Shown: positions 35,215 to 63,757, counted from the first letter of the stretch. The stretch: DNA of 64,000 bases from Flavobacteriaceae bacterium (GCA_016780345.1 JADHLZ010000005.1:175-64174); one strand, 5' to 3'. Made by a program: numbers and translations. Notes: generated from the letters alone by a model not told the origin.

Positions 35215-37581
35215 ATGAAAAAACTATTATTAGTACTATTGTTTTTTGGCGTAAGCTGTCAGCAAAACAACGATGTAAAATCATTTATTGATTTAATTCC
35301 AAGTAATCCATTATTGATTATAAAAAACAGCAAGGATTTTAATAACAGCTTAGTTAATTTTAATAAGAATTTAAATAAACTTCTATTAAAAAAATCAGAC
35401 TCTATTTTAGATTATAAACTCGAATCAGAAAGTTTGATTAGCTATCATAAAATTGGCAAAAATGAAATAAAGCCTATATCATTTAGATATTTTAATGAAG
35501 GGTATTATAAAAACAGAAATATTATTGATTCTGTACTTTATGATGGTTATATTATAAAAAAAATAGGTAATGAAGAGTATTTTTATTTCTCTACTGTAAA
35601 AAATAATATTTTAATTCAATCTGAGAGTAAATTATTAATTGAAAACTCTATCAGAAACTCAAACTTGGTTAGTAAAAAATTAGACCAAGACCTACTTGAT
35701 TTAAACAAAATTTCAAATTCTAATACAGTATTATTTGTTTCAGAAAAATTAAAAAATTTCATAGACAACAAAGACCTTAACTATTTTTTTGAAATTAACA
35801 ATCTTTCAAGCTGGTTTCAATTTGATGTTGATTTAAATAAAAATGGAATCATCTTAAATGGCGTTTCATTTCAAAATGATTCAATTATAAGACCAATAAA
35901 TTACTTAAATGGGATAAATCCATCAGAAAGTGAACTGCTAAACTTAGTCCCAAATAATTTTAACGATTTTAAAAGTTTTGTTTTTGATTTTAAGCAATAC
36001 ATGATAAACATTGAAAAATTTGAATCAATTACAGAAATTGAAAAAATAAAAAACGATTCAATATTATTTGATGTAAAGGAATTTGCAGTTTTAAGTTCAA
36101 TAAAAGATTCATTAATAATGGTAAATTTTAAAAGTTCTGAATCTTTTGAAAACCTTATAAATTTAAATATTACTGATAGCTACAAATACAGAAACTTTAC
36201 TATTAATAAAATTGATAACGATCTATTTAATTTTAATCGAATAAAATTTTACAACTTTAAATCAAATCAAAAGTATTTTACACAAATAGAAAACAACATC
36301 ATCGTTGGAAATTCTAATGAGGGAATTGAAAATCTTCTCAGTAACTTATCCATTACCTCAACACTAAAAAATAACCTAGATTTTGTTCAAATTCAAAATC
36401 AAATTCCTGAAAAAAGTAATTATTTAGGCGTAACGAATATTGAAAAAAGCAAAAGTTCTACATTGAATGAACTGGGATTGTCATCAAAAGATTACCCTTA
36501 CAAAGTAAATTTAATAACTCTTGAAAATAATTTTTTATATAATATACATACAGTTTTAAAAATCACTAAAAATAATAACGTTGATAAAATTAATTTGAAT
36601 GGAAATTTTAAAGCAGAATTCCCTATAAATTTTTCACCAAAATTTGTTACAAACTATATTACAAACAAAAAAGAAATTATTTTTCAAGATCATTTAAATA
36701 ATTTATATCTAATATCGTTGGATGGAGAATTGATTTGGAAAAAAAATATTAAGAATAAAATAATTGGAAACATTCATCAAATTGATTTATATAAAAATGG
36801 TAGGCTACAATTTGCATTTAGTACAACAAAGGATTTCCAAATCTTAGATAAAAATGGAAATATTGTAAAAAAAGTTGAACATAACAATAAAGTTGGTCTT
36901 TCAATATTTGATTATGATAAAGTAAAAAACTATAGATTCTTTTTACTTGGAAACAATTTGAAACTGATCAATTCAAACATGGATAATGTTAAGGGTTTTA
37001 ATAAAAAAACTCTTAAAGGACAATTTGTTAATAGTCCTAAACATTATAGAATAGGTTCAAAAGATTATTTAATCTTTAATGTTGACAATAAGATTATTAT
37101 AACGGATAGAAGAGGTGATATCAGAATAAAAAATAATTTAAATAATATTGAAAATGAAATTTACTTATATCAAAATTATTTTACCACAATCGATACTAAT
37201 AATAATTTAATCAAGTTGGATACAAATGGAAAAGTTAGTAAAAAACCTCTACCACTTGAAAGCATGTATTTAATCAATGCTAATGAGGATAACATAATTT
37301 ATTTAAGTGAAAATATTTTAAATATTAATGACAATATCATTGAATTAAAATTTGGAAATTATTTAAAACCAAAATTATTTAGAACAAAATCAAAAGATTT
37401 AATTTCAGTAATTAACAAAGAAGAAAACAAAGTTTACATGTTTAATTCGTTAGGTGAAGAAATTAAAAACTTCCCAATTTTTGGTTCCAGTTCAATTGAT
37501 TTTTATGAGAATAAAAAATCAAAAAAATACATAACATGTGTGGGAGAATCTAATGAAATTTTAGTTTACTCTTTCAATTAA
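35215..37581 (+). CDS. Large Asn/Lys-rich lipoprotein of unknown function, with a C-terminal repeat region suggesting a beta-propeller
   Basis: 788 aa with lipobox FFGVSC. Five or more repeats of a hydrophobic-x-D/S-x-x-G-x-hydrophobic-x-K pattern in the last ~300 aa (LDGELIWKK, LDKNGNIVKK, TDRRGDIRIK, LDTNGKVSKK, NSLGEEIKNF). Confidence 0.6.
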   Translation: MKKLLLVLLFFGVSCQQNNDVKSFIDLIPSNPLLIIKNSKDFNNSLVNFNKNLNKLLLKKSDSILDYKLESESLISYHKIGKNEIKPISFRYFNEGYYKNRNIIDSVLYDGYIIKKIGNEEYFYFSTVKNNILIQSESKLLIENSIRNSNLVSKKLDQDLLDLNKISNSNTVLFVSEKLKNFIDNKDLNYFFEINNLSSWFQFDVDLNKNGIILNGVSFQNDSIIRPINYLNGINPSESELLNLVPNNFNDFKSFVFDFKQYMINIEKFESITEIEKIKNDSILFDVKEFAVLSSIKDSLIMVNFKSSESFENLINLNITDSYKYRNFTINKIDNDLFNFNRIKFYNFKSNQKYFTQIENNIIVGNSNEGIENLLSNLSITSTLKNNLDFVQIQNQIPEKSNYLGVTNIEKSKSSTLNELGLSSKDYPYKVNLITLENNFLYNIHTVLKITKNNNVDKINLNGNFKAEFPINFSPKFVTNYITNKKEIIFQDHLNNLYLISLDGELIWKKNIKNKIIGNIHQIDLYKNGRLQFAFSTTKDFQILDKNGNIVKKVEHNNKVGLSIFDYDKVKNYRFFLLGNNLKLINSNMDNVKGFNKKTLKGQFVNSPKHYRIGSKDYLIFNVDNKIIITDRRGDIRIKNNLNNIENEIYLYQNYFTTIDTNNNLIKLDTNGKVSKKPLPLESMYLINANEDNIIYLSENILNINDNIIELKFGNYLKPKLFRTKSKDLISVINKEENKVYMFNSLGEEIKNFPIFGSSSIDFYENKKSKKYITCVGESNEILVYSFN

Positions 37582-53100: not shown

Positions 53101-56100
53101 ATGGCAGAAAAGATTCATATTGGAAACTTAGAATCATTTGATGATGTAAAAAAAGTTGAAGGAAAACAAATCAAAATTAATAACGAAAATTTTTATAAAA
53201 TATCCAACGTAGACAGAATGCGTCCATTTTTTATGAGTATAGTTAGTAACTCAAATCATTGGATGTTTATTTCTAGCACAGGAAGTCTTACAGCTGGAAG
53301 AAAAAATAGTGAATATGCACTATTTCCATATTATACGGACGATAAAATTACTGAATCCAACGAAACAACAGGAAGTAAGACAATTCTGATTGTTAAAATA
53401 AATGAGAAAAGATTTCTCTGGGAACCCTTTTCTGAAAGATATGCTAGAATCTACAAAACTGAAAGAAATATTTACAAAAACACAATTGGTAATAAAGTAA
53501 TTTTTCAAGAAATAAATCATGACTTAAATGTAGAATTTAGCTATCAATGGAATTCTAGTAATAAATATGGGTTTGTTAGAAAATCTATAATAAAAAATGT
53601 TTCAAGCAATAGTGTAGAAATTGATATTCTAGATGGAATTCAAAACATCTTACCATACGGAGTTGGAGAAGGTCTTCAAAATGCTCAAAGCAATCTTGTT
53701 GATGCTTACAAAAAATGCGAATTGGAACAAAAAAGCAAATTAGGTATTTATTCACTTAGTGCAATCATTGTTGATAAAGCAGAGCCTAGCGAAGCTTTAA
53801 AAGCAAATACTGCTTGGTCTTGTGACTTAAAAAATGCAAAATATCTTTTGTCCTCTTTGCAAATAGATAATTTTAGAAAGGGAATTAATCTTGTCAATGA
53901 AACGGAAATTAAAGCTGAAAAAGGAGCTTATTTTGTTAACCAGTCAATAAAACTTGAGGACAAATCCAGTGAAGAATGGATGATTGTTTGTAACGTCAAC
54001 CAAACTATTTCTGATGTAGTAAGATTAAAAGAAGCTATAATTCACGACAAAGAATTAAAACAAAAAGTTTCAGATGATGTAATACTTGGATCATCAAACT
54101 TAAGAGAATTAGTAGGTAATGCTGACGGATTACAGTTAACAAATGACAAACTCAGGATGATTAGACATTTTTCAAATACAATGTTTAACATCATGAGAGG
54201 AGGTATTTTTGATGATAATTACCAAATTGAAAAAAATGATTTTGTTCCTTACATTAAAAAAGCGAACATTTTAATTTATCAATCATTCTCTGATACTTTG
54301 GGTAATCTTCCAGAAACATTTACTCTTCATGAACTAAAATCAATTTCTGTAAATATATCTAACCATGATTTTAAGAGGTTATGTACTGAGTATCTTCCTT
54401 TAAAATTTAGTAGAAGACACGGAGATCCAAGTAGACCTTGGAATAAATTCTCTATCAACACAAGAAGCGAAGTAGATGGATCAAAAATCCTAGATTATCA
54501 AGGGAACTGGAGAGATATTTTCCAAAACTGGGAGGCTTTAGCTTACTCCTATCCTCAATTTATAGAGGGTATGATTCATAAATTTTTAAATTCATCAACT
54601 TTTGATGGATACAACCCATACAGAGTTACTAAGGATGGTTTTGATTGGGAAACTATTGAACCTGATAATCCTTGGTCATATATTGGTTATTGGGGCGATC
54701 ACCAAATAATTTATTTATTAAAATTTTTAGAATTTATTGAAGATCATTTTCCTGGAAAACTATATAAATATTTCTCAAAAAGTTTATTTGTGTATGCGAA
54801 CGTTCCTTACAAAATAAAATCGTATGAGGATATTTTAAAGGACTCTAAAAACACTATCGATTACGATCACGAAAATGAAATAATCATTGAAAAACGAAGA
54901 AAAGAAATTGGAATTGATGGATCATTATTATACAATAATAAATCTGAAATACACAGAGTAAATTTCATTGAAAAAATATTAGCTACTCTACTTGCTAAAG
55001 TTTCAAATTTTGTTCCTGAGGGTGGAATTTGGATGAACACACAAAGACCTGAATGGAACGATGCCAACAATGCTTTGGTAGGAAATGGAATTTCCATGGT
55101 CACCCTATATTACTTAAGAAGATTTGTAAATTTCTTTAATTCAGTCTTGGAAAATACTGAATACATTTCAGTTGAAATATCATCAGAATTATTTAAGTTT
55201 TTCAATGATATTTACAATAGTTTAAATGATAATAAAACCGTTTTAAACTCATCTGTTTCCGATCAAGATAGAAAAAAAATAGTTGATTTACTTGGTAAAG
55301 CAGGCTCTAATTATAGAAACATAATTTACGACAATAGTTTCTCCGGATTAAAATCTGCTATTGGCATAAAAGAAATTAAGGACTTAACCAAACTCCTTCT
55401 AAAGTACATTGACCATTCAATTAACTCAAATAAAAGAAAAGATAAACTCTATCATGCATATAATCTGTTAACTATTGAAAAAGATAAACTATCAGTTTCT
55501 TATTTACCTGAAATGCTTGAAGGACAAGTTGCTGTTTTAAGTTCTGGTTATTTAAATTCAAAAGAGAATTTAGAAGTACTTGATGCTTTAAAAGCTAGTA
55601 AGTTGTTCAGAGACGACCAGTACAGCTATATACTATACCCTGATAAAGATTTAGGTCTGTTTTTGGATAAAAACAATATTCCAAATTCAAAAATAAATGA
55701 ATCTAATCTACTAAAACAGCTATTAAAAGATGGAAATCAACAAATAGTTTCAAAAGATTGTATGGGAGATTACCATTTTAATTGTGATTTTAACAATGCG
55801 AATGGGTTGATTGATGAATTAAATTCTCTTCCTGACAAATACTCTGATTTAGTTGGAAAAGATTATAACACTGTTCTTCAAATATTTGAAGATGTGTTTA
55901 ATCATAAAGAATTTACAGGAAGATCCGGAACATTTTTTGGTTACGAAGGCCTAGGGTCAATATATTGGCACATGGTTTCTAAACTTTCTTTAGCTGTTTT
56001 AGAGACTACAAAAAAAGCAATCGATGAAGATGATCAAGCTATCATTGGAAAATTCTTTGATCATTATTTTGAAATACTTGAAGGAATTGGAGTCAATAAA

Positions 56101-56550
56101 TCTCCAATGCTTTATGGAGCATTTCCTACAGACCCATATTCACATACTCCTGCTGGAAAAGGTGCTCAACAACCTGGAATGACTGGCCAAGTTAAAGAAG
56201 ATATAATTTCAAGATTTGGAGAACTTGGTGTTGAAGTTAAAAATGGTGTTATAAGCTTTAACCCTGAGATGCTAAGAAATGAAGAGTTTTTGAAAGAAAA
56301 TGAAACTTTCAAATATGTGAACCTTTCAAAAGAAAAATGTCTTCTTGATGTTGAAAAAGGGTCTTTATGTTTTACATACTGTCAAGTCCCAATTATTTAT
56401 TCAAAATCATCAGAAAATAAAATTAAAGTTGATTTCATAAATGGAAAATCTGTTAGTATTCAGGGTAACGAATTAGATACTGAATCTAGCAAATCATTAT
56501 TCAACAGAGAAAACATAATTAAACAAATAAACGTAAGTGTTGTAAAATGA
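53101..56550 (+). CDS. Large cytoplasmic GH94-like glycoside phosphorylase, most likely GH149 beta-1,3-glucan phosphorylase
   Basis: 1149 aa with no signal peptide. Strings match the (alpha/alpha)6 phosphorylase catalytic module: GNWRDIFQNW (RDxxQ), WGDHQIIYLL, RPEWNDANNAL (the DWND-type catalytic Asp, codon 654 at 55060-55062), and GYEGLGSIYWHM. The size and beta-1,3-glucanase neighbourhood fit GH149. Confidence 0.6.
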   Translation: MAEKIHIGNLESFDDVKKVEGKQIKINNENFYKISNVDRMRPFFMSIVSNSNHWMFISSTGSLTAGRKNSEYALFPYYTDDKITESNETTGSKTILIVKINEKRFLWEPFSERYARIYKTERNIYKNTIGNKVIFQEINHDLNVEFSYQWNSSNKYGFVRKSIIKNVSSNSVEIDILDGIQNILPYGVGEGLQNAQSNLVDAYKKCELEQKSKLGIYSLSAIIVDKAEPSEALKANTAWSCDLKNAKYLLSSLQIDNFRKGINLVNETEIKAEKGAYFVNQSIKLEDKSSEEWMIVCNVNQTISDVVRLKEAIIHDKELKQKVSDDVILGSSNLRELVGNADGLQLTNDKLRMIRHFSNTMFNIMRGGIFDDNYQIEKNDFVPYIKKANILIYQSFSDTLGNLPETFTLHELKSISVNISNHDFKRLCTEYLPLKFSRRHGDPSRPWNKFSINTRSEVDGSKILDYQGNWRDIFQNWEALAYSYPQFIEGMIHKFLNSSTFDGYNPYRVTKDGFDWETIEPDNPWSYIGYWGDHQIIYLLKFLEFIEDHFPGKLYKYFSKSLFVYANVPYKIKSYEDILKDSKNTIDYDHENEIIIEKRRKEIGIDGSLLYNNKSEIHRVNFIEKILATLLAKVSNFVPEGGIWMNTQRPEWNDANNALVGNGISMVTLYYLRRFVNFFNSVLENTEYISVEISSELFKFFNDIYNSLNDNKTVLNSSVSDQDRKKIVDLLGKAGSNYRNIIYDNSFSGLKSAIGIKEIKDLTKLLLKYIDHSINSNKRKDKLYHAYNLLTIEKDKLSVSYLPEMLEGQVAVLSSGYLNSKENLEVLDALKASKLFRDDQYSYILYPDKDLGLFLDKNNIPNSKINESNLLKQLLKDGNQQIVSKDCMGDYHFNCDFNNANGLIDELNSLPDKYSDLVGKDYNTVLQIFEDVFNHKEFTGRSGTFFGYEGLGSIYWHMVSKLSLAVLETTKKAIDEDDQAIIGKFFDHYFEILEGIGVNKSPMLYGAFPTDPYSHTPAGKGAQQPGMTGQVKEDIISRFGELGVEVKNGVISFNPEMLRNEEFLKENETFKYVNLSKEKCLLDVEKGSLCFTYCQVPIIYSKSSENKIKVDFINGKSVSIQGNELDTESSKSLFNRENIIKQINVSVVK

Positions 56551-57842
56551 ATATGATATATATAAATAACTCAAAACTTAACGATTTAATCAGAATCTCA
56601 CTGCTTACCATGTTGGTTAGTAGCTTATTTATATCATGTGAATTTTCAGAAAATAAAATGAAAGAGAAAAAAGAAATTACAGCTCAAGAAATTTTAAATG
56701 ATCCAAGTTATTTAGCTATTTCTTATGGTGGATATAGACATAGAACTAGAGATATTCAGCCTACTATGGATGAATTAAAAGATGATTTAAAAATACTTTC
56801 ATCTTTAGGAATTAAAATTTTAAGGACCTATAATTTACAACTTCCGCAAGCACCTAATATAATAAAAGCAATTAAAGAAATTAAAGAATCAGATCCTGAC
56901 TTTGAAATGTATGTTATGCTTGGAGCTTGGATTGACTGTGAAAATGCTTGGACTGACAGCCCAAATCATGAAAAAGAGGATGAATCTGCCAATGCAATAG
57001 AAATTCAAAAGGCAATAAATCTTGCAAATATGTATCCTGAAATAGTTAAAATCATAGCTGTAGGAAATGAGGCAATGGTTAATTGGGCATGGAGTTACTA
57101 TGTTAAACCAGGTGTAATTTTAAAATGGGTTAATCATTTACAAGATTTAAAGAAGCAGAAAAAATTACCAGAAAATTTATGGATTACAAGTTCTGATAAT
57201 TTTGCGTCATGGGGAGGTGGTGATGAATCGTACCACACAAGCGATTTAAACTCATTGATTAAGTCAGTAGATTTTATATCCATGCATACTTATGCATTTC
57301 ACGATACTCATTATAATCCCTCTTTTTGGAATTTTAACAAAGATTTAAAAAATGAGTTTTCAGATTTAGAAATAATAAATAAATCAATGGAAAATGTTCA
57401 ACAGTATACTATTTCACAATACAACAGTGTAAAAGATTATCTAAAGAAAATTGGAGTTGAAAAAGAAGTTCACATTGGTGAATTAGGCTGGTCAACCGTT
57501 TCAAATGAACTATATGGTGATAAGGGAACACATGCTGCAGATGAATATAAACAAGCTCTATTCTTTGATAAAATAAGAGAATGGACTACTAAAGAAAAAA
57601 TTAGCTGCTTTTATTTTGAGGCATTTGATGAACCATGGAAAGATGCTCAAAATATTAATGGTTCAGAAAACCACTTTGGATTATTTACTGTTGATGGTAA
57701 AGCAAAATTTGCGTTGTGGAAAAATGTTGATGAAGGGAACTTTAAAGGACTTACAAGAAATGGAAATTCTATAATCAAAACATTTGATGGAAATAGTGAA
57801 ATTTTATTCAATAGTATTCTAACTCCACCTTTAATCGATTAA
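56547..57842 (+). CDS. GH17 family beta-1,3-glucanase/transglycosylase, lipoprotein
   Basis: 431 aa with lipobox SLFISC, acid/base AVGNEAM, nucleophile IGELGWST, and the FYFEAFDEPWK GH17 signature. ATGA overlap with the upstream gene. Confidence 0.8.
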   Translation: MNMIYINNSKLNDLIRISLLTMLVSSLFISCEFSENKMKEKKEITAQEILNDPSYLAISYGGYRHRTRDIQPTMDELKDDLKILSSLGIKILRTYNLQLPQAPNIIKAIKEIKESDPDFEMYVMLGAWIDCENAWTDSPNHEKEDESANAIEIQKAINLANMYPEIVKIIAVGNEAMVNWAWSYYVKPGVILKWVNHLQDLKKQKKLPENLWITSSDNFASWGGGDESYHTSDLNSLIKSVDFISMHTYAFHDTHYNPSFWNFNKDLKNEFSDLEIINKSMENVQQYTISQYNSVKDYLKKIGVEKEVHIGELGWSTVSNELYGDKGTHAADEYKQALFFDKIREWTTKEKISCFYFEAFDEPWKDAQNINGSENHFGLFTVDGKAKFALWKNVDEGNFKGLTRNGNSIIKTFDGNSEILFNSILTPPLID

Positions 57843-57845
57843 ATT

Positions 57846-58856
57846 ATGAAATTAAAATATTCTCTTATCTTAATTCTTTTAATTTCGATACTAAGTTGGA
57901 ATTTTTACTATTGTTGTGAAGAAAATAATGTAGAAATTGAAGAAAGGAATTTTTTAGTTAATAATCAAAGATATTTCATTAAAGGAGTTTGCTACGACCC
58001 TGTTCCATTAGGTTCTAAAAAAAGAAGTTTCGACAAAATTGATGAAGATTTGAAGTTAATGGTTGAAGCTGGGATTAACACTATAAGAGTGTATTCACCA
58101 ATTGATGATATCTCAATTCTTAATAAAATTGATAATGCTGGTCTTAAAATAATAATGGGATTTGGATATAATCAAGAAGGTTATTACGATATTCTTTCAG
58201 GATCCTTTGAAAACTACATTAAAAAGTATAAAAACCATAATGCTATATTGTTTTGGGAGCTTGGTAATGAATATAATTATCATTCAGAATGGTTTGAAGG
58301 AGATATTAATAATTGGTACGAAGAATTAAATGAAGCTGCGTATAAAATAAAACAAGTAGATAGTTCCAGACCAGTAACCACTGCTCATGGTGAAATTCCA
58401 GAAAAAATTCTTATTGAAAAACTTAATAATATTGACGCATGGGGAATTAATGTTTATAGATGGGATGACCCAAGTGATTTGCTTCAGGATTGGGTAAAAA
58501 TTAGTAAAAAACCATTATACCTTTCTGAAGCGGGAAGTGATAGTTACATGACCATTGAAAATTATGGTTATTCAAAAGGGGAAAACCAACTTGCTCAGGC
58601 CGAAGCAAACGCAAAAATTTTAGATGCTGTATTTAATAATTCAGATAAAGTTTCAGGTGTTTTAATATTTCAATTTGTGGATGGATTATGGAAAGCTGGA
58701 AATCCTTACAAACAAGACATTGGTGGATGGGCTCCAAATAGCATTGGAGTTCCATATGATGGAGCTCCCAACGAGGAATTCTGGGGCATTGTAGATATTG
58801 AAAGAAATAAAAAGAAAACTTTTGAAGTGATTAAAAACAAGTACAACAACAATTAA
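57846..58856 (+). CDS. Exported clan GH-A (beta/alpha)8 glycoside hydrolase or transglycosylase, family not assignable by eye (GH72-like strings; GH5/GH2-barrel/GH128/GH158 also possible)
   Basis: 336 aa with a signal peptide ending ..FYYCC. FWELGNEYN (acid/base NE) and LYLSEAGSD (nucleophile E). FLVNNQRYFIKGVCY, INTIRVY and AWGINVYRW are collinear with Gas1-type GH72 strings. Confidence 0.55.
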   Translation: MKLKYSLILILLISILSWNFYYCCEENNVEIEERNFLVNNQRYFIKGVCYDPVPLGSKKRSFDKIDEDLKLMVEAGINTIRVYSPIDDISILNKIDNAGLKIIMGFGYNQEGYYDILSGSFENYIKKYKNHNAILFWELGNEYNYHSEWFEGDINNWYEELNEAAYKIKQVDSSRPVTTAHGEIPEKILIEKLNNIDAWGINVYRWDDPSDLLQDWVKISKKPLYLSEAGSDSYMTIENYGYSKGENQLAQAEANAKILDAVFNNSDKVSGVLIFQFVDGLWKAGNPYKQDIGGWAPNSIGVPYDGAPNEEFWGIVDIERNKKKTFEVIKNKYNNN

Positions 58857-58862
58857 ATCAAC

Positions 58863-60344
58863 ATGAACGACCTTTTTAAATCTGTAATAATTACTCTAGC
58901 ATTTTGTTCGTGCCAAAATAATTCTGAAATGGAAATTAAAATTTTTGAAACATCTAGAAATGGAAATAAATTAAAAGAATTAAAAGAATTTAATATCTCA
59001 GAAAAAATCTCTGAAATTAATTTAAAAACTTATAAAAAATATCAGACTATTACAGGTTTTGGTGGGGCATTCACGGAATCATCTGCTTATTTACTAAATC
59101 AAATGAGTAAAGAAAAAAGAAAAGAAATTTTAAATGCCTATTTTTCCGAGAAAGGTTCAAATTATTCTCTTACTAGAACTCACATGAATTCATGTGATTT
59201 TTCCATTTCAAATTATTCTTATAGCCCCGTTGAAGGGGATATAAATCTTGAACATTTTTCAGTTAAAGAAGACATGGATGATATAATTCCCATGATAAAA
59301 GAAGCTATGGAAGTCTCTCAAGATGGATTTAAAATTTTTGCTTCTCCTTGGACAGCAGCTCCATGGATGAAAGACAATAATGAATGGAAAGGAGGAAAAT
59401 TACTGCCAAAATACTACGATACTTGGGCCCTGTTTTTCTCAAAATATGTTGATGCTTACAAGGAACAAGGTATAAACATATGGGGTTTTACAGTTGAAAA
59501 TGAACCTCACGGAAATAATTCAAGCTGGGAGAGCATGCATTATACACCTGAAGAAATGACACATTTTGTAAAAGAATACTTAGGACCTCAACTGGAAAAA
59601 GACGGTAAAGGAGATCTCGTAATTCTTGGTTACGACCAAAATAGAGCAGATCTAAAAAAATGGGTTGACTCAATGTTTGAAAACGAAGAATCATCTAAAT
59701 ATTTTGATGGAACTGCTGTTCATTGGTACGATAGTACATATGAATTTTATCCTGACGAACTTCAATATGCTCATAACAAAGCACCAAATAAATATTTAAT
59801 TCAAACTGAAGCATGTGTTGATTCAGAAATTCCTCATTGGAATGATGATGATTGGTATTTTAGAAAAGAGGCAACTGATTGGGGATACGATTGGAGAGAA
59901 GATGAAAAAAAATATTTACATCCAAAATATGCACCGTTCAACAGATACTCAAGAGATATAATCGGATCTTTAAATAACTGGGTTGATGGATGGGTAGACT
60001 GGAATATGGTATTAGATACGCAAGGAGGTCCAAATTGGGCTAATAATTGGTGCGTAGCTCCAATTATCGTTGATCCTACAATTGATGAAATATACTACAC
60101 CCCACTTTATTATGTGATGACCCATTTTAGCAAGTACATAAGACCTGGTGCAGAAGTTATCGAAGCAGAAAATTCCGATCCGGAATTAATGGTTACTGCA
60201 GCACTCAATCCTGATAAAAGTATTGCTATTGTTTTATTTAATGAAGGTTTTGAAGAAAAAAGCTTCAATCTAAATTTAAATGGATTTTCTAAATCTGTAT
60301 CTATTAGTCCTCAAGCAATTCAAACCATAACATTAGAAAACTAA
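58863..60344 (+). CDS. GH30 family glycoside hydrolase (glucosylceramidase-like; likely beta-1,6-glucosidase/glucanase debranching laminarin), lipoprotein
   Basis: 493 aa with lipobox LAFCSC, GFGGAFTES, acid/base TVENEPH, and nucleophile IQTEACV. Confidence 0.85.
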   Translation: MNDLFKSVIITLAFCSCQNNSEMEIKIFETSRNGNKLKELKEFNISEKISEINLKTYKKYQTITGFGGAFTESSAYLLNQMSKEKRKEILNAYFSEKGSNYSLTRTHMNSCDFSISNYSYSPVEGDINLEHFSVKEDMDDIIPMIKEAMEVSQDGFKIFASPWTAAPWMKDNNEWKGGKLLPKYYDTWALFFSKYVDAYKEQGINIWGFTVENEPHGNNSSWESMHYTPEEMTHFVKEYLGPQLEKDGKGDLVILGYDQNRADLKKWVDSMFENEESSKYFDGTAVHWYDSTYEFYPDELQYAHNKAPNKYLIQTEACVDSEIPHWNDDDWYFRKEATDWGYDWREDEKKYLHPKYAPFNRYSRDIIGSLNNWVDGWVDWNMVLDTQGGPNWANNWCVAPIIVDPTIDEIYYTPLYYVMTHFSKYIRPGAEVIEAENSDPELMVTAALNPDKSIAIVLFNEGFEEKSFNLNLNGFSKSVSISPQAIQTITLEN

Positions 60345-60348
60345 AACT

Positions 60349-61767
60349 ATGGAAAATAATTCTTTAAAAAGTTTGGAAGGAATGGGCCAAAAGATAGCTT
60401 TTGGATTTGGAATGTTAGCGAATCAAATGTTTCCTGCAGCTTTAGGAGTTTTTATTATTGTTCTAGTTCAGGATTTAGGTTTCGCTGCACTTTTATGGGG
60501 AATAATACAATTTGCACCAAGAATTTTTGATGCTATAACAGACCCTCTAATGGGATTTATTTCGGACAATACTAAGTCTAGGTGGGGAAGAAGAAGACAG
60601 TACGTTTTTATTGGTGGAATTTTAATGGGGTTAGCTTACATAGCTATGTGGCAATTACATAAAGATGATGGTATTGTTTACAATTTTATTTACTTCTTTT
60701 CTTGGTCATTAGTCTTCTATTTAGGATTAACCATTTTTAGCGTTCCATATGTAGCAATGGGCTATGAAATAAGTGATGATTTTCACGAGCGAACTCAAAT
60801 TATGGCTATAGCTCAATTTATTGGTCAATGGGCATGGGTAATTGCTCCTTGGTTTTGGGTTGTTTTATATGATCCAACATGGTTTCCTGAAGGGGCTGGT
60901 CAAGGCGTAAGAGATTTGTCTATTTGGGTGGCAATCCCATGTACTATTTTTGCAATTATACCTGCAATATTTATAAAAAGTGAATCGACTCTAAATAGAA
61001 AAGATTTTTTACCTGTAAATGCAGGTTATATTAGAAAAAGTATTAAAGGAATCTTTATTTCAGCTTTTGAAGCTTTCAAAATAAAGCAATTTAAAAAAAT
61101 TGCATTTGCAACATTTTTAATTTTTAACTCATTCCAAGTTATTGCTGCATTTACGTTTTTAATAATAGTCCACTACTTATTCAAAAGTGATCCTGCAAGT
61201 GCTGGAAGCTGGCCTGCCTTACATGGTTCTGTTGGAGCTCTAATTACTTCATTTTTAGTTATTCCACTAATTACTTTAATTTCTAAAAAAATTGGAAAAA
61301 AGAAAGCATTTATTTTATCACAATTAATTTCAATTATTGGATATATTTTGTTTTGGTTTCTATTTATTCCTGGTAAACCTTATATGTTTTTATTTGCACT
61401 ACCGTTTCATTCGTTTGGTATAGGTAGTTTATTTACGATAATGATGTCCATGACTGCGGATGTATGTGATTTAGATGAACTTGAAAATGGAACGCGAAGA
61501 GAAGGTGTTCTTGGGGCTGTGTACTGGTGGATGGTAAAACTTGGTTTTGGTGTAGCCGCCCTATTCAGTGGATTCATCCTGTGGTTAGTAGGATTTGACC
61601 CAAATCAAGTCAAAGAAACTGCTCTTACAGGAATGAGGTTGTTTTATACATTTCTTCCAATAACTGGTGTGATTCTGGCAATATTAATAATGAAAGATTA
61701 TGATATTAGTGAGGAAAGAGCAAATGAGATTAAAGAACAATTGAAGTTAAAAAAGAACAATAAATAA
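60349..61767 (+). CDS. GPH-family (MelB-like) MFS glycoside:cation symporter
   Basis: 472 aa with about 12 TM segments and the GPH signature DAITDPLMGFISDNTKSRWGRRRQY. Confidence 0.85.
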   Translation: MENNSLKSLEGMGQKIAFGFGMLANQMFPAALGVFIIVLVQDLGFAALLWGIIQFAPRIFDAITDPLMGFISDNTKSRWGRRRQYVFIGGILMGLAYIAMWQLHKDDGIVYNFIYFFSWSLVFYLGLTIFSVPYVAMGYEISDDFHERTQIMAIAQFIGQWAWVIAPWFWVVLYDPTWFPEGAGQGVRDLSIWVAIPCTIFAIIPAIFIKSESTLNRKDFLPVNAGYIRKSIKGIFISAFEAFKIKQFKKIAFATFLIFNSFQVIAAFTFLIIVHYLFKSDPASAGSWPALHGSVGALITSFLVIPLITLISKKIGKKKAFILSQLISIIGYILFWFLFIPGKPYMFLFALPFHSFGIGSLFTIMMSMTADVCDLDELENGTRREGVLGAVYWWMVKLGFGVAALFSGFILWLVGFDPNQVKETALTGMRLFYTFLPITGVILAILIMKDYDISEERANEIKEQLKLKKNNK

Positions 61768-61770
61768 AAT

Positions 61771-62655
61771 ATGTCTTACAGAAAGGAAAAGTTACATTCA
61801 TTAACAGGAATTGATTTAAATACTGTCTCTGAATCAGAATTAAAAAAGCTTTGTAATAAATTTTTAAAACAAGGAATTCATGGATTGTGTTTTAGTGCTT
61901 ATGATGAAGGACAAGAACCAGGTGATAATATTTCCGACAAGCAAATTTTAAGAAAATTAAATATTATCAAACCTTATATTAAATGGATTAGAACATTTTC
62001 TTGTATGGAGGGAAATGAAAGAATTCCAATTCTTGCTAAACAATTAGGTTTAAAAACACTCGTTGGTGCTTGGCTCAGTGATAATGAGCTAAAAAATGAA
62101 AAAGAAATCAATGGATTAATTTCTTTATGTAAATCTGGATATGTTGATGTTGCAGGAGTTGGAAATGAAGTTTTATATAGAAAAGAAATGTCTGAAACTG
62201 AACTTATCGACTACATTAATTTAGTCAAAAAAGAAATCGGAAATATTCCTGTTGGTTATGTTGATGCTTATTATGAATTTTCTTCAAGACCTGATCTTTC
62301 AGATTCTTGTGATGTTATCTTAGCTAATTGCTATCCTTATTGGGAAGGATGCAGCTTAGAATACTCCTTAATGTATATGAAACAAATGTATTTTGAGGCT
62401 AAGTCAGCTGGAAAAGGAAAAAAAGTAATCATTACTGAAACTGGTTGGCCAAGCCAAGGTGCTAGTTTAAGAGGAGCTCACCCTTCAAAGGAGAATGCTC
62501 TAAAATACTTTGTAAATGCACAAAACTGGTCATTTGAAGATGACATTGAAATGTTTTATTTTTCTGCTTTTGATGAATCTTGGAAAGTTGGTGTTGAAGG
62601 AGATGTAGGAGCATACTGGGGATTATGGGATAAAGATGAAAAATTAAAATTTTAA
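61771..62655 (+). CDS. GH17 family enzyme without signal peptide (predicted cytoplasmic)
   Basis: 294 aa with GVGNEVLY, canonical nucleophile motif ITETGWPSQG, and FYFSAFDESWK. The N-terminus MSYRKEKLHSLTGIDLN is hydrophilic. Confidence 0.8.
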   Translation: MSYRKEKLHSLTGIDLNTVSESELKKLCNKFLKQGIHGLCFSAYDEGQEPGDNISDKQILRKLNIIKPYIKWIRTFSCMEGNERIPILAKQLGLKTLVGAWLSDNELKNEKEINGLISLCKSGYVDVAGVGNEVLYRKEMSETELIDYINLVKKEIGNIPVGYVDAYYEFSSRPDLSDSCDVILANCYPYWEGCSLEYSLMYMKQMYFEAKSAGKGKKVIITETGWPSQGASLRGAHPSKENALKYFVNAQNWSFEDDIEMFYFSAFDESWKVGVEGDVGAYWGLWDKDEKLKF

Positions 62656-62657
62656 TA

Positions 62658-63590
62658 TTGGATTACTCTAAAGCACTTAATATAGATCTTGGTAAAGCAA
62701 TTTGCTACTCTGGATATAGAAAAGGTCAAACACCCGGAGAAATTTTTCCAACTTACAATCAGGTAAAAGAAGATCTTTTAATTATTAGTAAAACATGGAA
62801 ATACATTAGATTGTATAGTTGTGATTTTCATTCTAAAACTGTTTTAGAGGTCATAAAAAATGAAAAACTTTCCCTAAGAGTCATGCTTGGTTGCTATATT
62901 GAAGCAGAAATTAATAATTACTCTTGTCCATGGGGAGGTGAATATTCTGACGAACAATTAGAAATTAATAAAAAAAGAAATCTTCAAAGAATAGATTTGT
63001 TAGCAAAATTCGGTAATGAATACACTGACATTATTTTTTCTCTTTCTATTGGAAATGAAGCTTGTGTTAGTTGGACTGATCATATGGTTCCTGTTGAAAG
63101 CGTTGTCAAGTATGCAAAAATTATCAAAAATAAAGCCAATCAACCTGTAACCTTCTGTGAAAATTACGTTACATGGGTTAAAAAATTAGAAAAACTAGTA
63201 GAAGTAATTGATTTTATTTCTATTCATAGCTATCCTCAATGGGAAAATGTGTATATAAACAATGCCTTAAATTATACAATTGACAATTTTAATTTGGTTC
63301 GTTCTAAATACCCTGATAAATTAATTGTCATAACTGAAGCAGGTTGGACTACTTCAACCAATGATAAAGAAATTAAAAAACACAATACAAGCGAGCATTT
63401 TCAAAAAGTATATTATAAACAATTGTCCAAGTGGAGTGAAGATGAAAAGGTTCTAACTTTTATATTTGAAGCATTTGACGAACCCTGGAAAGGATCAAAT
63501 GACCCATTTGAGCCTGAAAAACATTGGGGTTTATTTTATGAAAACAGAACTCCTAAAATTGTAATGAATAAAGAATTATATAAAAAGTAA
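62658..63590 (+). CDS. GH17 family enzyme without signal peptide (predicted cytoplasmic), paralog of the preceding gene
   Basis: 310 aa with a TTG start. SIGNEACV, ITEAGWTTS and FIFEAFDEPWK. The N-terminus MDYSKALNIDLGKA is hydrophilic. Confidence 0.75.
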   Translation: MDYSKALNIDLGKAICYSGYRKGQTPGEIFPTYNQVKEDLLIISKTWKYIRLYSCDFHSKTVLEVIKNEKLSLRVMLGCYIEAEINNYSCPWGGEYSDEQLEINKKRNLQRIDLLAKFGNEYTDIIFSLSIGNEACVSWTDHMVPVESVVKYAKIIKNKANQPVTFCENYVTWVKKLEKLVEVIDFISIHSYPQWENVYINNALNYTIDNFNLVRSKYPDKLIVITEAGWTTSTNDKEIKKHNTSEHFQKVYYKQLSKWSEDEKVLTFIFEAFDEPWKGSNDPFEPEKHWGLFYENRTPKIVMNKELYKK

Positions 63591-63645: not shown

Positions 63646-63718
<73 letters not shown>

Positions 63719-63726
63719 CTAAACAA

Positions 63727-63757
63727 GACGGATCGGTATTTCTACCGGTCCGTTTTT
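63727..63757 (+). terminator. Rho-independent terminator after tRNA-Met (and the glucan operon)
   Basis: ACGGATCGGTA-TTTC-TACCGGTCCGT. An 11-bp stem with one G:U pair and a 4-nt loop, followed by TTTT. Confidence 0.85.

Follow-up and report, generated by a model that had tools for sequence, protein, structure and literature searches.

The stretch of DNA analysed here, 64,000 nucleotides (nt) from a Flavobacteriaceae bacterium (GCA_016780345.1, JADHLZ010000005.1:175-64174) and called the window below, closes with a run of seven + strand genes separated by intergenic gaps of -4 to 6 nt. The last two, ORF6 (61771..62655, 294 amino acids (aa), ATG start) and ORF7 (62658..63590, 310 aa, TTG start), encode enzymes of glycoside hydrolase family 17 (GH17) and are the subject of this report. 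ORF6 begins 3 nt past the stop codon of a symporter gene of the major facilitator superfamily (MFS) and ORF7 begins 2 nt past the stop codon of ORF6, which places both directly downstream of the importer gene, as an initial annotation of the sequence had described. That annotation had also suggested that the two enzymes stay in the cytoplasm and serve a beta-1,3-glucan phosphorylase of the same operon in the way that MalQ serves MalP in E. coli. We propose, as the probable explanation, that ORF6 and ORF7 form the cytoplasmic end of a laminarin-utilisation operon conserved in Bacteroidota, in which laminarin would be cut outside the cytoplasm and its oligosaccharides finished within it.

The two GH17 genes and their cellular location

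Both genes are intact where the initial annotation had placed them and carry the catalytic motifs that it had quoted, namely GNE at residues 131-133, ITETGWPS and FSAFDESWK in ORF6, and GNE at residues 132-134, ITEAGWTT and FEAFDEPWK in ORF7. The acid/base and nucleophile residues (Glu133 and Glu223 in ORF6, Glu134 and Glu227 in ORF7) are invariant in both family alignments. ORF6 scores 43.5 bits against Pfam PF00332 and ORF7 scores 28.1 bits, just below the cut-off of 28.2 bits, while NCBIfam has no model for either protein or for the exported GH17 enzyme of the operon (GH17A). The best sequence matches in the PDB are 4WTP for ORF6 (1.6e-31) and 6FCG for ORF7 (3.4e-24). Foldseek searches with the AlphaFold models returned 4WTR, 4WTP and 8AKP as the top matches of ORF6, and 6FCG followed by 4WTR as those of ORF7, whose model has a predicted local distance difference test (pLDDT) score of 84.3. 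Judged from these sequence comparisons, the GH17 membership of both ORFs is far beyond chance.

The earlier claim that neither protein has a signal peptide held when possible upstream starts were checked. The frame of ORF6 is shut by the MFS stop codon at 61765-61767, one codon 5' of its ATG, and that of ORF7 by a TGA at 62637-62639, six codons up, with no ATG, GTG or TTG before 62658; these in-frame stops rule out alternative upstream starts and leave no room for a signal peptide. N-terminal hydropathy, taken as the maximum Kyte-Doolittle value of a 10-residue window in the first 40 residues, is low for ORF6 (0.67), ORF7 (0.96) and the phosphorylase GH149 (0.20), in contrast to the high values (2.25-3.62) of the operon's three exported enzymes, GH17A, a GH2_C-like enzyme and GH30. 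Products of 294 and 310 aa were also predicted by independent gene calling in metagenomes, and thousands of homologues share the lengths and N-termini of ORF6 and ORF7.

The same division was seen in a set of homologous loci comprising the best 80 of at least 596 related stretches found in a genome scan with the ORF7 family alignment. This set was chosen as the best ORF7 matches, is silent on ORF6-type genes that have no ORF7 partner, and spans Flavobacteriaceae, Saprospiraceae/Lewinellaceae, Chitinophagaceae, Bacteroidales, Cyclobacteriaceae and Balneolaceae. A hydrophobic N-terminal segment occurs in 2 of 79 free ORF6-type genes, both of which look like frame-broken fusions, and in 2 of 81 ORF7-type genes; the median number of open codons upstream is four for the ORF6 type and five for the ORF7 type. 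Such a segment was seen in 39 of 44 genes for GH17A, which served as the control, in 26 of 26 for the GH2_C-like enzyme and in 39 of 41 for GH30, as against none of the 39 relatives of GH149. Across the set, the exported and cytoplasmic enzymes of the cluster thus separate cleanly by their N-termini, and ORF6 and ORF7 are almost certainly cytoplasmic. At a Carboxylicivirga locus (L080, 11088-12014), a second ORF7-like gene, with 40% identity, is preceded by 63 open codons and has a hydrophobic segment; it could represent an exported form of this clade.

Two further statements of the initial annotation need adjustment. Its premise that GH17 enzymes are generally extracytoplasmic fails for the bacterial subgroup to which ORF6 and ORF7 belong, and a cytoplasmic location of such enzymes has already been published (PMC5827456; PMC11005184; PMC13188888). 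The genes are indeed adjacent, as its description of them as tandem paralogs implied, but a recent tandem duplication is out, since the two proteins are only 25% identical to each other, while either one shares about 60% identity with conserved orthologues of its own throughout the phylum.

Partner genes and conservation of the cluster

The operon begins with GH149 (53101..56550), a beta-1,3-(oligo)glucan phosphorylase of 1149 aa without a signal peptide, which scores 1771.8 bits against the NCBIfam equivalog NF058639 (cut-off 1150 bits) and has 6HQ6 (Pro_7066) as by far its best PDB match, at 1561 bits. The start of the next gene overlaps its stop codon (ATGA, 56547-56550). That gene (56547..57842) encodes GH17A, a 431-aa exported lipoprotein of the endo-beta-1,3-glucanase type whose PDB match is 6FCG (FbGH17A; E = 5e-165), and for which Pfam gives no match; its N-terminus, ...LTMLVSSLFISC, is a signal peptide ending in a lipobox-like ...SLFISC, as the initial annotation had noted. 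The third gene (57846..58856) encodes an exported clan GH-A TIM-barrel enzyme of 336 aa with the signal peptide MKLKYSLILILLISIL. It matches Pfam PF02836 (Glyco_hydro_2_C, 1.4e-13) and, weakly, the GH158 entry 9ORO of the PDB (3.7e-5), and is probably a GH158-type beta-1,3-glucanase. A gene of this kind was found in only 22 of 52 related loci.

The fourth gene (58863..60344) encodes GH30, a presumed beta-1,6-glucosidase of 493 aa (Pfam PF02055, 2e-80), which appears to be exported by its signal- or lipoprotein-like N-terminus, MNDLFKSVIITLAFCSC. Published predictions place the GH30 enzymes of Formosa B and Muricauda in the cytoplasm, unlike what this N-terminus indicates. Some metagenome gene calls begin GH30 22 codons later, with loss of the signal. 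The fifth gene (60349..61767) encodes a 472-aa cation symporter of the GPH family (MFS_2, MelB-like), identified by Pfam PF13347 (7.7e-57) and NCBIfam TIGR00792 (gph, 1.8e-51). It is presumed to import laminari-oligosaccharides.

Downstream, the operon is limited by a tRNA-Met gene found by ARAGORN (63646..63719, + strand), followed by a terminator-like hairpin (63725..63756, + strand) with a 14-pair stem and a T run, which came from a consensus scan and is a pattern match only. A sigma-70 promoter scan is uninformative for Bacteroidota and was not used. The TTG start of ORF7 2 nt past the stop codon of ORF6, together with the ATGA overlap of GH149 and GH17A, suggests translational coupling along the operon. 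In relatives, the start codon at the position of the ORF7 TTG is ATG in 69 genes, TTG in three and ATT in two.

No SusC/SusD pair, GH16 gene or regulator was found near the cluster, and neither SusC/SusD nor a glucan synthase is among the larger genes of the window. The group is a carbohydrate-active enzyme (CAZyme) cluster rather than a canonical polysaccharide utilisation locus. Its neighbours in the window are housekeeping genes, encoding FtsH, ValRS, glutamate synthase, a Porin_10 protein, Lys/Asn-type and Ala tRNA synthetases, and two GTPases that, named from their translations only, resemble Der and Era. An ORF of 788 aa at 35215-37581 gave no Pfam match at 1e-5.

Synteny across the loci was read by tblastn with the seven window proteins, and the gene order GH149, GH17A, GH2_C-like, GH30, MFS, ORF6, ORF7 recurs nearly everywhere in the set. 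An ORF6-type gene lies immediately 5' of ORF7 in 74 of 74 loci, an MFS gene is present in 62 of 67, and GH149 in 47 of the 52 loci with enough upstream sequence, so that the link between the GH17 pair and the phosphorylase assumed by the initial annotation is borne out genomically. Across marine Bacteroidota, the laminarin-utilisation cluster usually ends in such a pair of genes.

In 23 of 65 loci, among them L019 (1712-4078), the MFS gene is joined in frame to a C-terminal GH17 domain that is paralogous to ORF6 and 45-57% identical to it, an arrangement known from FbGH17B. Each of these fusion loci holds in addition a free gene of the ORF6 type (58-67% identity to ORF6) and then one of the ORF7 type. 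The junction is colinear: in the window the symporter ends ...DYDISEERANEIKEQLKLKKNNK-stop and ORF6 begins MSYRKEKLHSLTG, while fusions read through as ...DYDLTEERANEISRELIRRKNAIKPKLTSYHQTEKLLSLG. In the window the two genes are kept apart by a TAA (61765-61767) and 3 nt, and the same split is present in independent contigs. The N-terminal motif SY+xEKLxSLxG is conserved in the free enzymes, which could therefore still dock on the transporter. Among representative-protein matches (P0250-P0390), relatives of ORF6 at 40-45% identity include hundreds in which the GH17 domain lies inside proteins of 400-1800 aa.

The fusions bear on the location of the enzymes. Transporters of the GPH/MelB type have both their N- and C-termini in the cytoplasm, and hydropathy revealed no extra hydrophobic segment between the MFS and GH17 parts of the fusions. 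By a crude hydropathy count, the window symporter has six hydrophobic segments following a K/R-rich central loop and then a K/R-rich tail; because the same approach counted 10-11 of the 12 expected membrane segments, the topology was taken from the GPH/MelB assignment, from these six segments and the basic tail, and from the Formosa fusion FORMB_24740, for which 12 membrane-spanning segments are listed (PMC6246565 Table S3). Taken together, the cytoplasmic termini, the 12 segments and the absence of a further one put the fused GH17 domain, and by homology the subfamily of ORF6, in the cytoplasm.

Relationship of ORF6 and ORF7 to characterised enzymes

The closest described counterpart of ORF6 is MlGH17B of Muricauda lutaonensis, a signal-less GH17 of 295 aa whose gene lies directly 3' of the MFS gene of a laminarin cluster (PMC11005184; PMC13188888). 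MlGH17B uses donors with a degree of polymerization (DP) of 4 or more, is poor below DP5, and frees laminaribiose from the reducing end (PMC11005184; PMC13188888); the remainder is moved to an acceptor by a beta-1,6 bond, giving multiply branched products of up to DP26 (PMC11005184). Eighteen of the 19 numbered MlGH17B residues, including Glu133, Tyr136, Trp191 and Glu192, are the same in ORF6 at the same positions, and its nucleophile Glu223 is matched as well. The one mismatch is Val275, where MlGH17B has Ser; RmBgt17A also has Val there. As in MlGH17B, an N-terminal helix precedes beta1; in the ORF6 model it is at residues 21-33. Like MlGH17B, ORF6 is a single domain of nearly the same length without a signal peptide, and its gene comes right after the MFS gene in a cluster with GH17A, GH30 and GH149; it differs in that the Muricauda clusters are described with two GH17 genes only, and hence with no ORF7-type partner (PMC13188888).

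Support for this assignment also comes from the pattern of residues among relatives. The signature E-Y-W-E-E is present in 78 of 81 free ORF6-type genes, while in the fused domains of 20 loci the position of Tyr136 is occupied by Leu in 11, Phe in four, Tyr in two, and Met, His and Gln in one each. In a neighbour-joining tree, ORF6 falls within the free Tyr clade and the fused domains fall outside it. The fungal beta-1,3-glucanosyltransferase RmBgt17A (4WTP/4WTR), which is the top PDB match of ORF6 by both sequence and fold, shares the Tyr/Trp/Glu acceptor platform, although it is of fungal origin and only about 28-29% identical.

FbGH17B (FORMB_24740) of Formosa sp. Hel1_33_131 belongs to the same subfamily as ORF6 and has the same slot after GH30 and MFS, with a colinear linker. 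It differs in being fused to the MFS protein, where ORF6 is a separate gene, and in having Met at the position of Tyr136, and it is reported to be an exo-glucosidase (PMC6246565). ORF6 shows neither the fusion nor the replacement of Tyr136 by which FbGH17B-type membership would be recognised, and it is not a direct FbGH17B orthologue, since fusion loci also hold a free Tyr-type copy and the fused domains lie outside that clade. From its sequence, ORF6 would be best described as an MlGH17B-type transglycosylase and not as the FbGH17B counterpart.

ORF7 is a different enzyme. It shares 25% of its residues with ORF6 and 27% with GH17A, and its orthologues, about 60% identical across the phylum, have a conserved N-terminus and both catalytic Glu residues invariant. 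The signature E-V-W-E-E is present in 81 of 82 ORF7-type genes (Glu134, Val137, Trp195, Glu196 and Glu227 in the window). ORF7 aligns with GH17A through the long beta3-alpha3 loop, at which ORF6 has a 15-residue gap; this loop is described as a feature of endo-laminarinases (PMC13188888). At the aglycone pair ORF7 reads YPQWE, where 6FCG has YPMHD and the window GH17A YAFHD. For this region GH17A was read from pairwise alignments, because in the MAFFT alignment the Trp191 column of the GH17A group looks misaligned owing to large insertions. The ORF7 active site, as read from these alignments, appears to mix both types, with a laminarinase-like Val and long loop and a transferase-like Trp-Glu pair.

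The endo-laminarinases FbGH17A and MlGH17A (6FCG) are the best match of ORF7 in sequence and structure; like it, they have Val where MlGH17B has Tyr136, and their beta3-alpha3 loop is long. ORF7 lacks their signal peptide and lipobox as well as about 100 residues that make up their insertions and C-terminal extension, and has Trp195-Glu196 where GH17A has His-Asp. Compared with the GH17A type of exported endo-laminarinase, ORF7 thus agrees in the loop and Val but is without the signal or lipobox and the His-Asp/Asn pair. A literature search found no characterised member of the ORF7 clade, which is widespread. In Formosa B, the free GH17 that follows the fusion, FORMB_24750 (AOR29492), is laminarin-induced and predicted to be cytoplasmic (PMC6246565 Table S3); by its description it is signal-less, like ORF6 and ORF7, and it occupies the slot after the MFS-GH17 gene. 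ORF7 is most likely a cytoplasmic hydrolase of laminari-oligosaccharides.

The proposed pathway and its alternatives

In the pathway that we propose, the lipoprotein GH17A, the GH2_C/GH158-like enzyme and GH30 would cut and debranch laminarin outside the cytoplasm, and the GPH/MFS symporter would take up the resulting laminari-oligosaccharides. Inside the cell, GH149 would phosphorolyse the beta-1,3 chains from the non-reducing end, yielding alpha-glucose-1-phosphate and glucose. ORF6, a retaining enzyme, would hold the reducing end in subsites +1 and +2, split off laminaribiose where the chain has DP 4-5 or more, and then hand the remainder either to water or, through a beta-1,6 link, to another oligosaccharide. 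ORF7 would most likely hydrolyse oligosaccharides that have been imported or generated by transfer. The activities given here to GH149, GH17A, GH30 and ORF6 are those of published homologues, and the division of work among the three cytoplasmic enzymes is the one we infer from them.

Several points weigh against this pathway. Enzymes of the GH17A type give mainly products of DP2-4, and MlGH17B is a poor enzyme below DP5 (PMC13188888). The fused FbGH17B was reported as a glucose-yielding exo-glucosidase, and its authors discussed hydrolysis coupled to uptake (PMC6246565), in which case the transporter might carry glucose. The AlphaFold model of ORF6 is of moderate confidence (pLDDT 71.7), the tree of ORF6-type and fused domains has no support values, and the match of ORF6 to MlGH17B rests on residue numbering, length and gene position rather than on a sequence alignment. 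GPH symporters typically carry small glycosides. Set beside the DP5 preference of MlGH17B, a feed of DP2-4 through such a symporter makes the cytoplasmic donor of ORF6 puzzling.

The coupling suggested by the initial annotation, in which the cytoplasmic GH17 enzymes would disproportionate short imported oligomers into chains that GH149 can use, has points in its favour. An imported oligosaccharide does meet a co-encoded cytoplasmic transglycosylase and a phosphorylase, as in E. coli, and a sugar symporter, a phosphorylase and a GH17 of transglycosylase type, with the full transfer signature in ORF6, are found in one operon. That ORF6 is of the transferring kind is supported by the Tyr136/Trp191/Glu192 set and the 18 of 19 numbered residues that it shares with MlGH17B. 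In E. coli, MalP is unable to act on short chains and depends on MalQ. The characterised GH149 enzyme Pro_7066, however, phosphorolyses G2 and G3 to glucose and takes acceptors from Glc to G6 with equal efficiency and a flat kcat/Km (PMC5827456; PMC6484121), so that, by analogy, there would be no minimum-length problem and no need for lengthening. Products as large as DP26 are indeed formed by MlGH17B (PMC11005184), but the enzyme cannot use the DP2-4 products of its partner endo-glucanase (PMC13188888), and its transfer introduces beta-1,6 branches or kinks and does not extend the beta-1,3 chain; the literature consulted contains no report of a GH149 enzyme phosphorolysing or passing links of this kind. 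An enzyme of its type would thus neither reshuffle short oligomers nor improve the substrates of a beta-1,3 phosphorylase, whereas MalQ restores the very alpha-1,4 bond that MalP cuts. The protein families of the E. coli pair are also unrelated to GH17 and GH149. The resemblance in layout stands, but the rebuilding of short chains for the phosphorylase is not supported by what is known of these homologues, and we hold such a coupling to be improbable. It is also possible that ORF6 acts in vivo as a plain hydrolase, either releasing laminaribiose or working as an exo-glucosidase like FbGH17B, and that transglycosylation is an in vitro artefact of high substrate concentrations. Retaining glycosidases commonly transglycosylate at millimolar substrate, and oligosaccharide levels in the cytoplasm are likely to be low. 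FbGH17B, which is 53% identical to MlGH17B, was reported to yield glucose only (PMC6246565). The retention of Tyr136 in 78 of 81 free copies and its loss from most fused ones nevertheless argue for selection on the acceptor platform, and the Y102A variant of RmBgt17A, as cited in PMC11005184, shows that this residue is needed for transfer. We therefore regard a purely hydrolytic ORF6 as rather unlikely.

ORF6 and ORF7 could also belong to an intracellular beta-glucan reserve. Its beta-1,3 chains would come from a reversed GH149 or a GT2 synthase and be branched by ORF6 into a soluble laminarin-like store, which ORF7 and GH149 would mobilise. GH149 is freely reversible and makes chains of up to DP 11-12 in vitro (PMC5827456), the products of MlGH17B are multiply branched, and the authors of the work on MlGH17B raised a storage role, as a suggestion only (PMC11005184; PMC13188888). 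On the other hand, the genes lie in a laminarin-induced catabolic operon that also encodes an importer and exported enzymes of degradation (PMC6246565), no synthase gene is present in the window, where the neighbouring genes are housekeeping ones, and the literature on these enzymes reports no beta-glucan store in such bacteria, all of which makes a reserve very unlikely. An alpha-glucan storage polysaccharide in bloom-associated bacteria is, by its title, the subject of PMC11093988. More broadly, the fused GH17 domains with Leu, Phe or Met, the free Tyr enzymes (ORF6) and the Val enzymes (ORF7) may make up, with GH149, a conserved cytoplasmic machine for remodelling beta-1,3/1,6-glucan, a proposal that we consider distinctly doubtful. 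Such a machine could use transfer to resolve limit oligosaccharides that are branched or kinked, much as glycogen is debranched, or it could, through a reversed GH149 and branching by ORF6, build up and mobilise a transient store resembling laminarin that needs no nucleotide sugars. If it exists, the specificity of the ORF7 clade would be a new one, with beta-1,6-kinked oligosaccharides as an example of its substrates. Finally, most characterised plant and fungal GH17 enzymes are extracellular, and ORF6 and ORF7 might likewise be exported, by a signal-free route or from a mis-called start. The stops that close both frames one and six codons upstream, the conserved and hydrophilic N-termini of hundreds of homologues, the paralogues joined to the cytoplasmic C-terminus of the symporter, and the clear signals of all exported enzymes of the same operon make this extremely unlikely.

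With the laminarin pathway retained as the best explanation, ORF6 matches an enzyme type that has already been characterised, and only ORF7 belongs to a clade in which no studied member was found; the known picture is not fundamentally changed by these results. They do bring out two gaps, the purpose of a beta-1,6-forming transglycosylase that prefers DP 5 or more in a catabolic operon fed mostly with DP2-4, and the activity of the ORF7 clade, with its at least 596 related stretches. The residue at a single position, Tyr, Leu/Phe/Met or Val, offers a simple way to annotate the three classes of signal-less GH17. Laminarin is among the largest carbon fluxes of the ocean, and bloom-associated Flavobacteriia consume it to a large part through this cluster, one of their main routes; our analysis supports the view that oligosaccharides, and not only glucose, cross the inner membrane, and that phosphorolysis, which saves energy, has a share in completing their breakdown in the cytoplasm.

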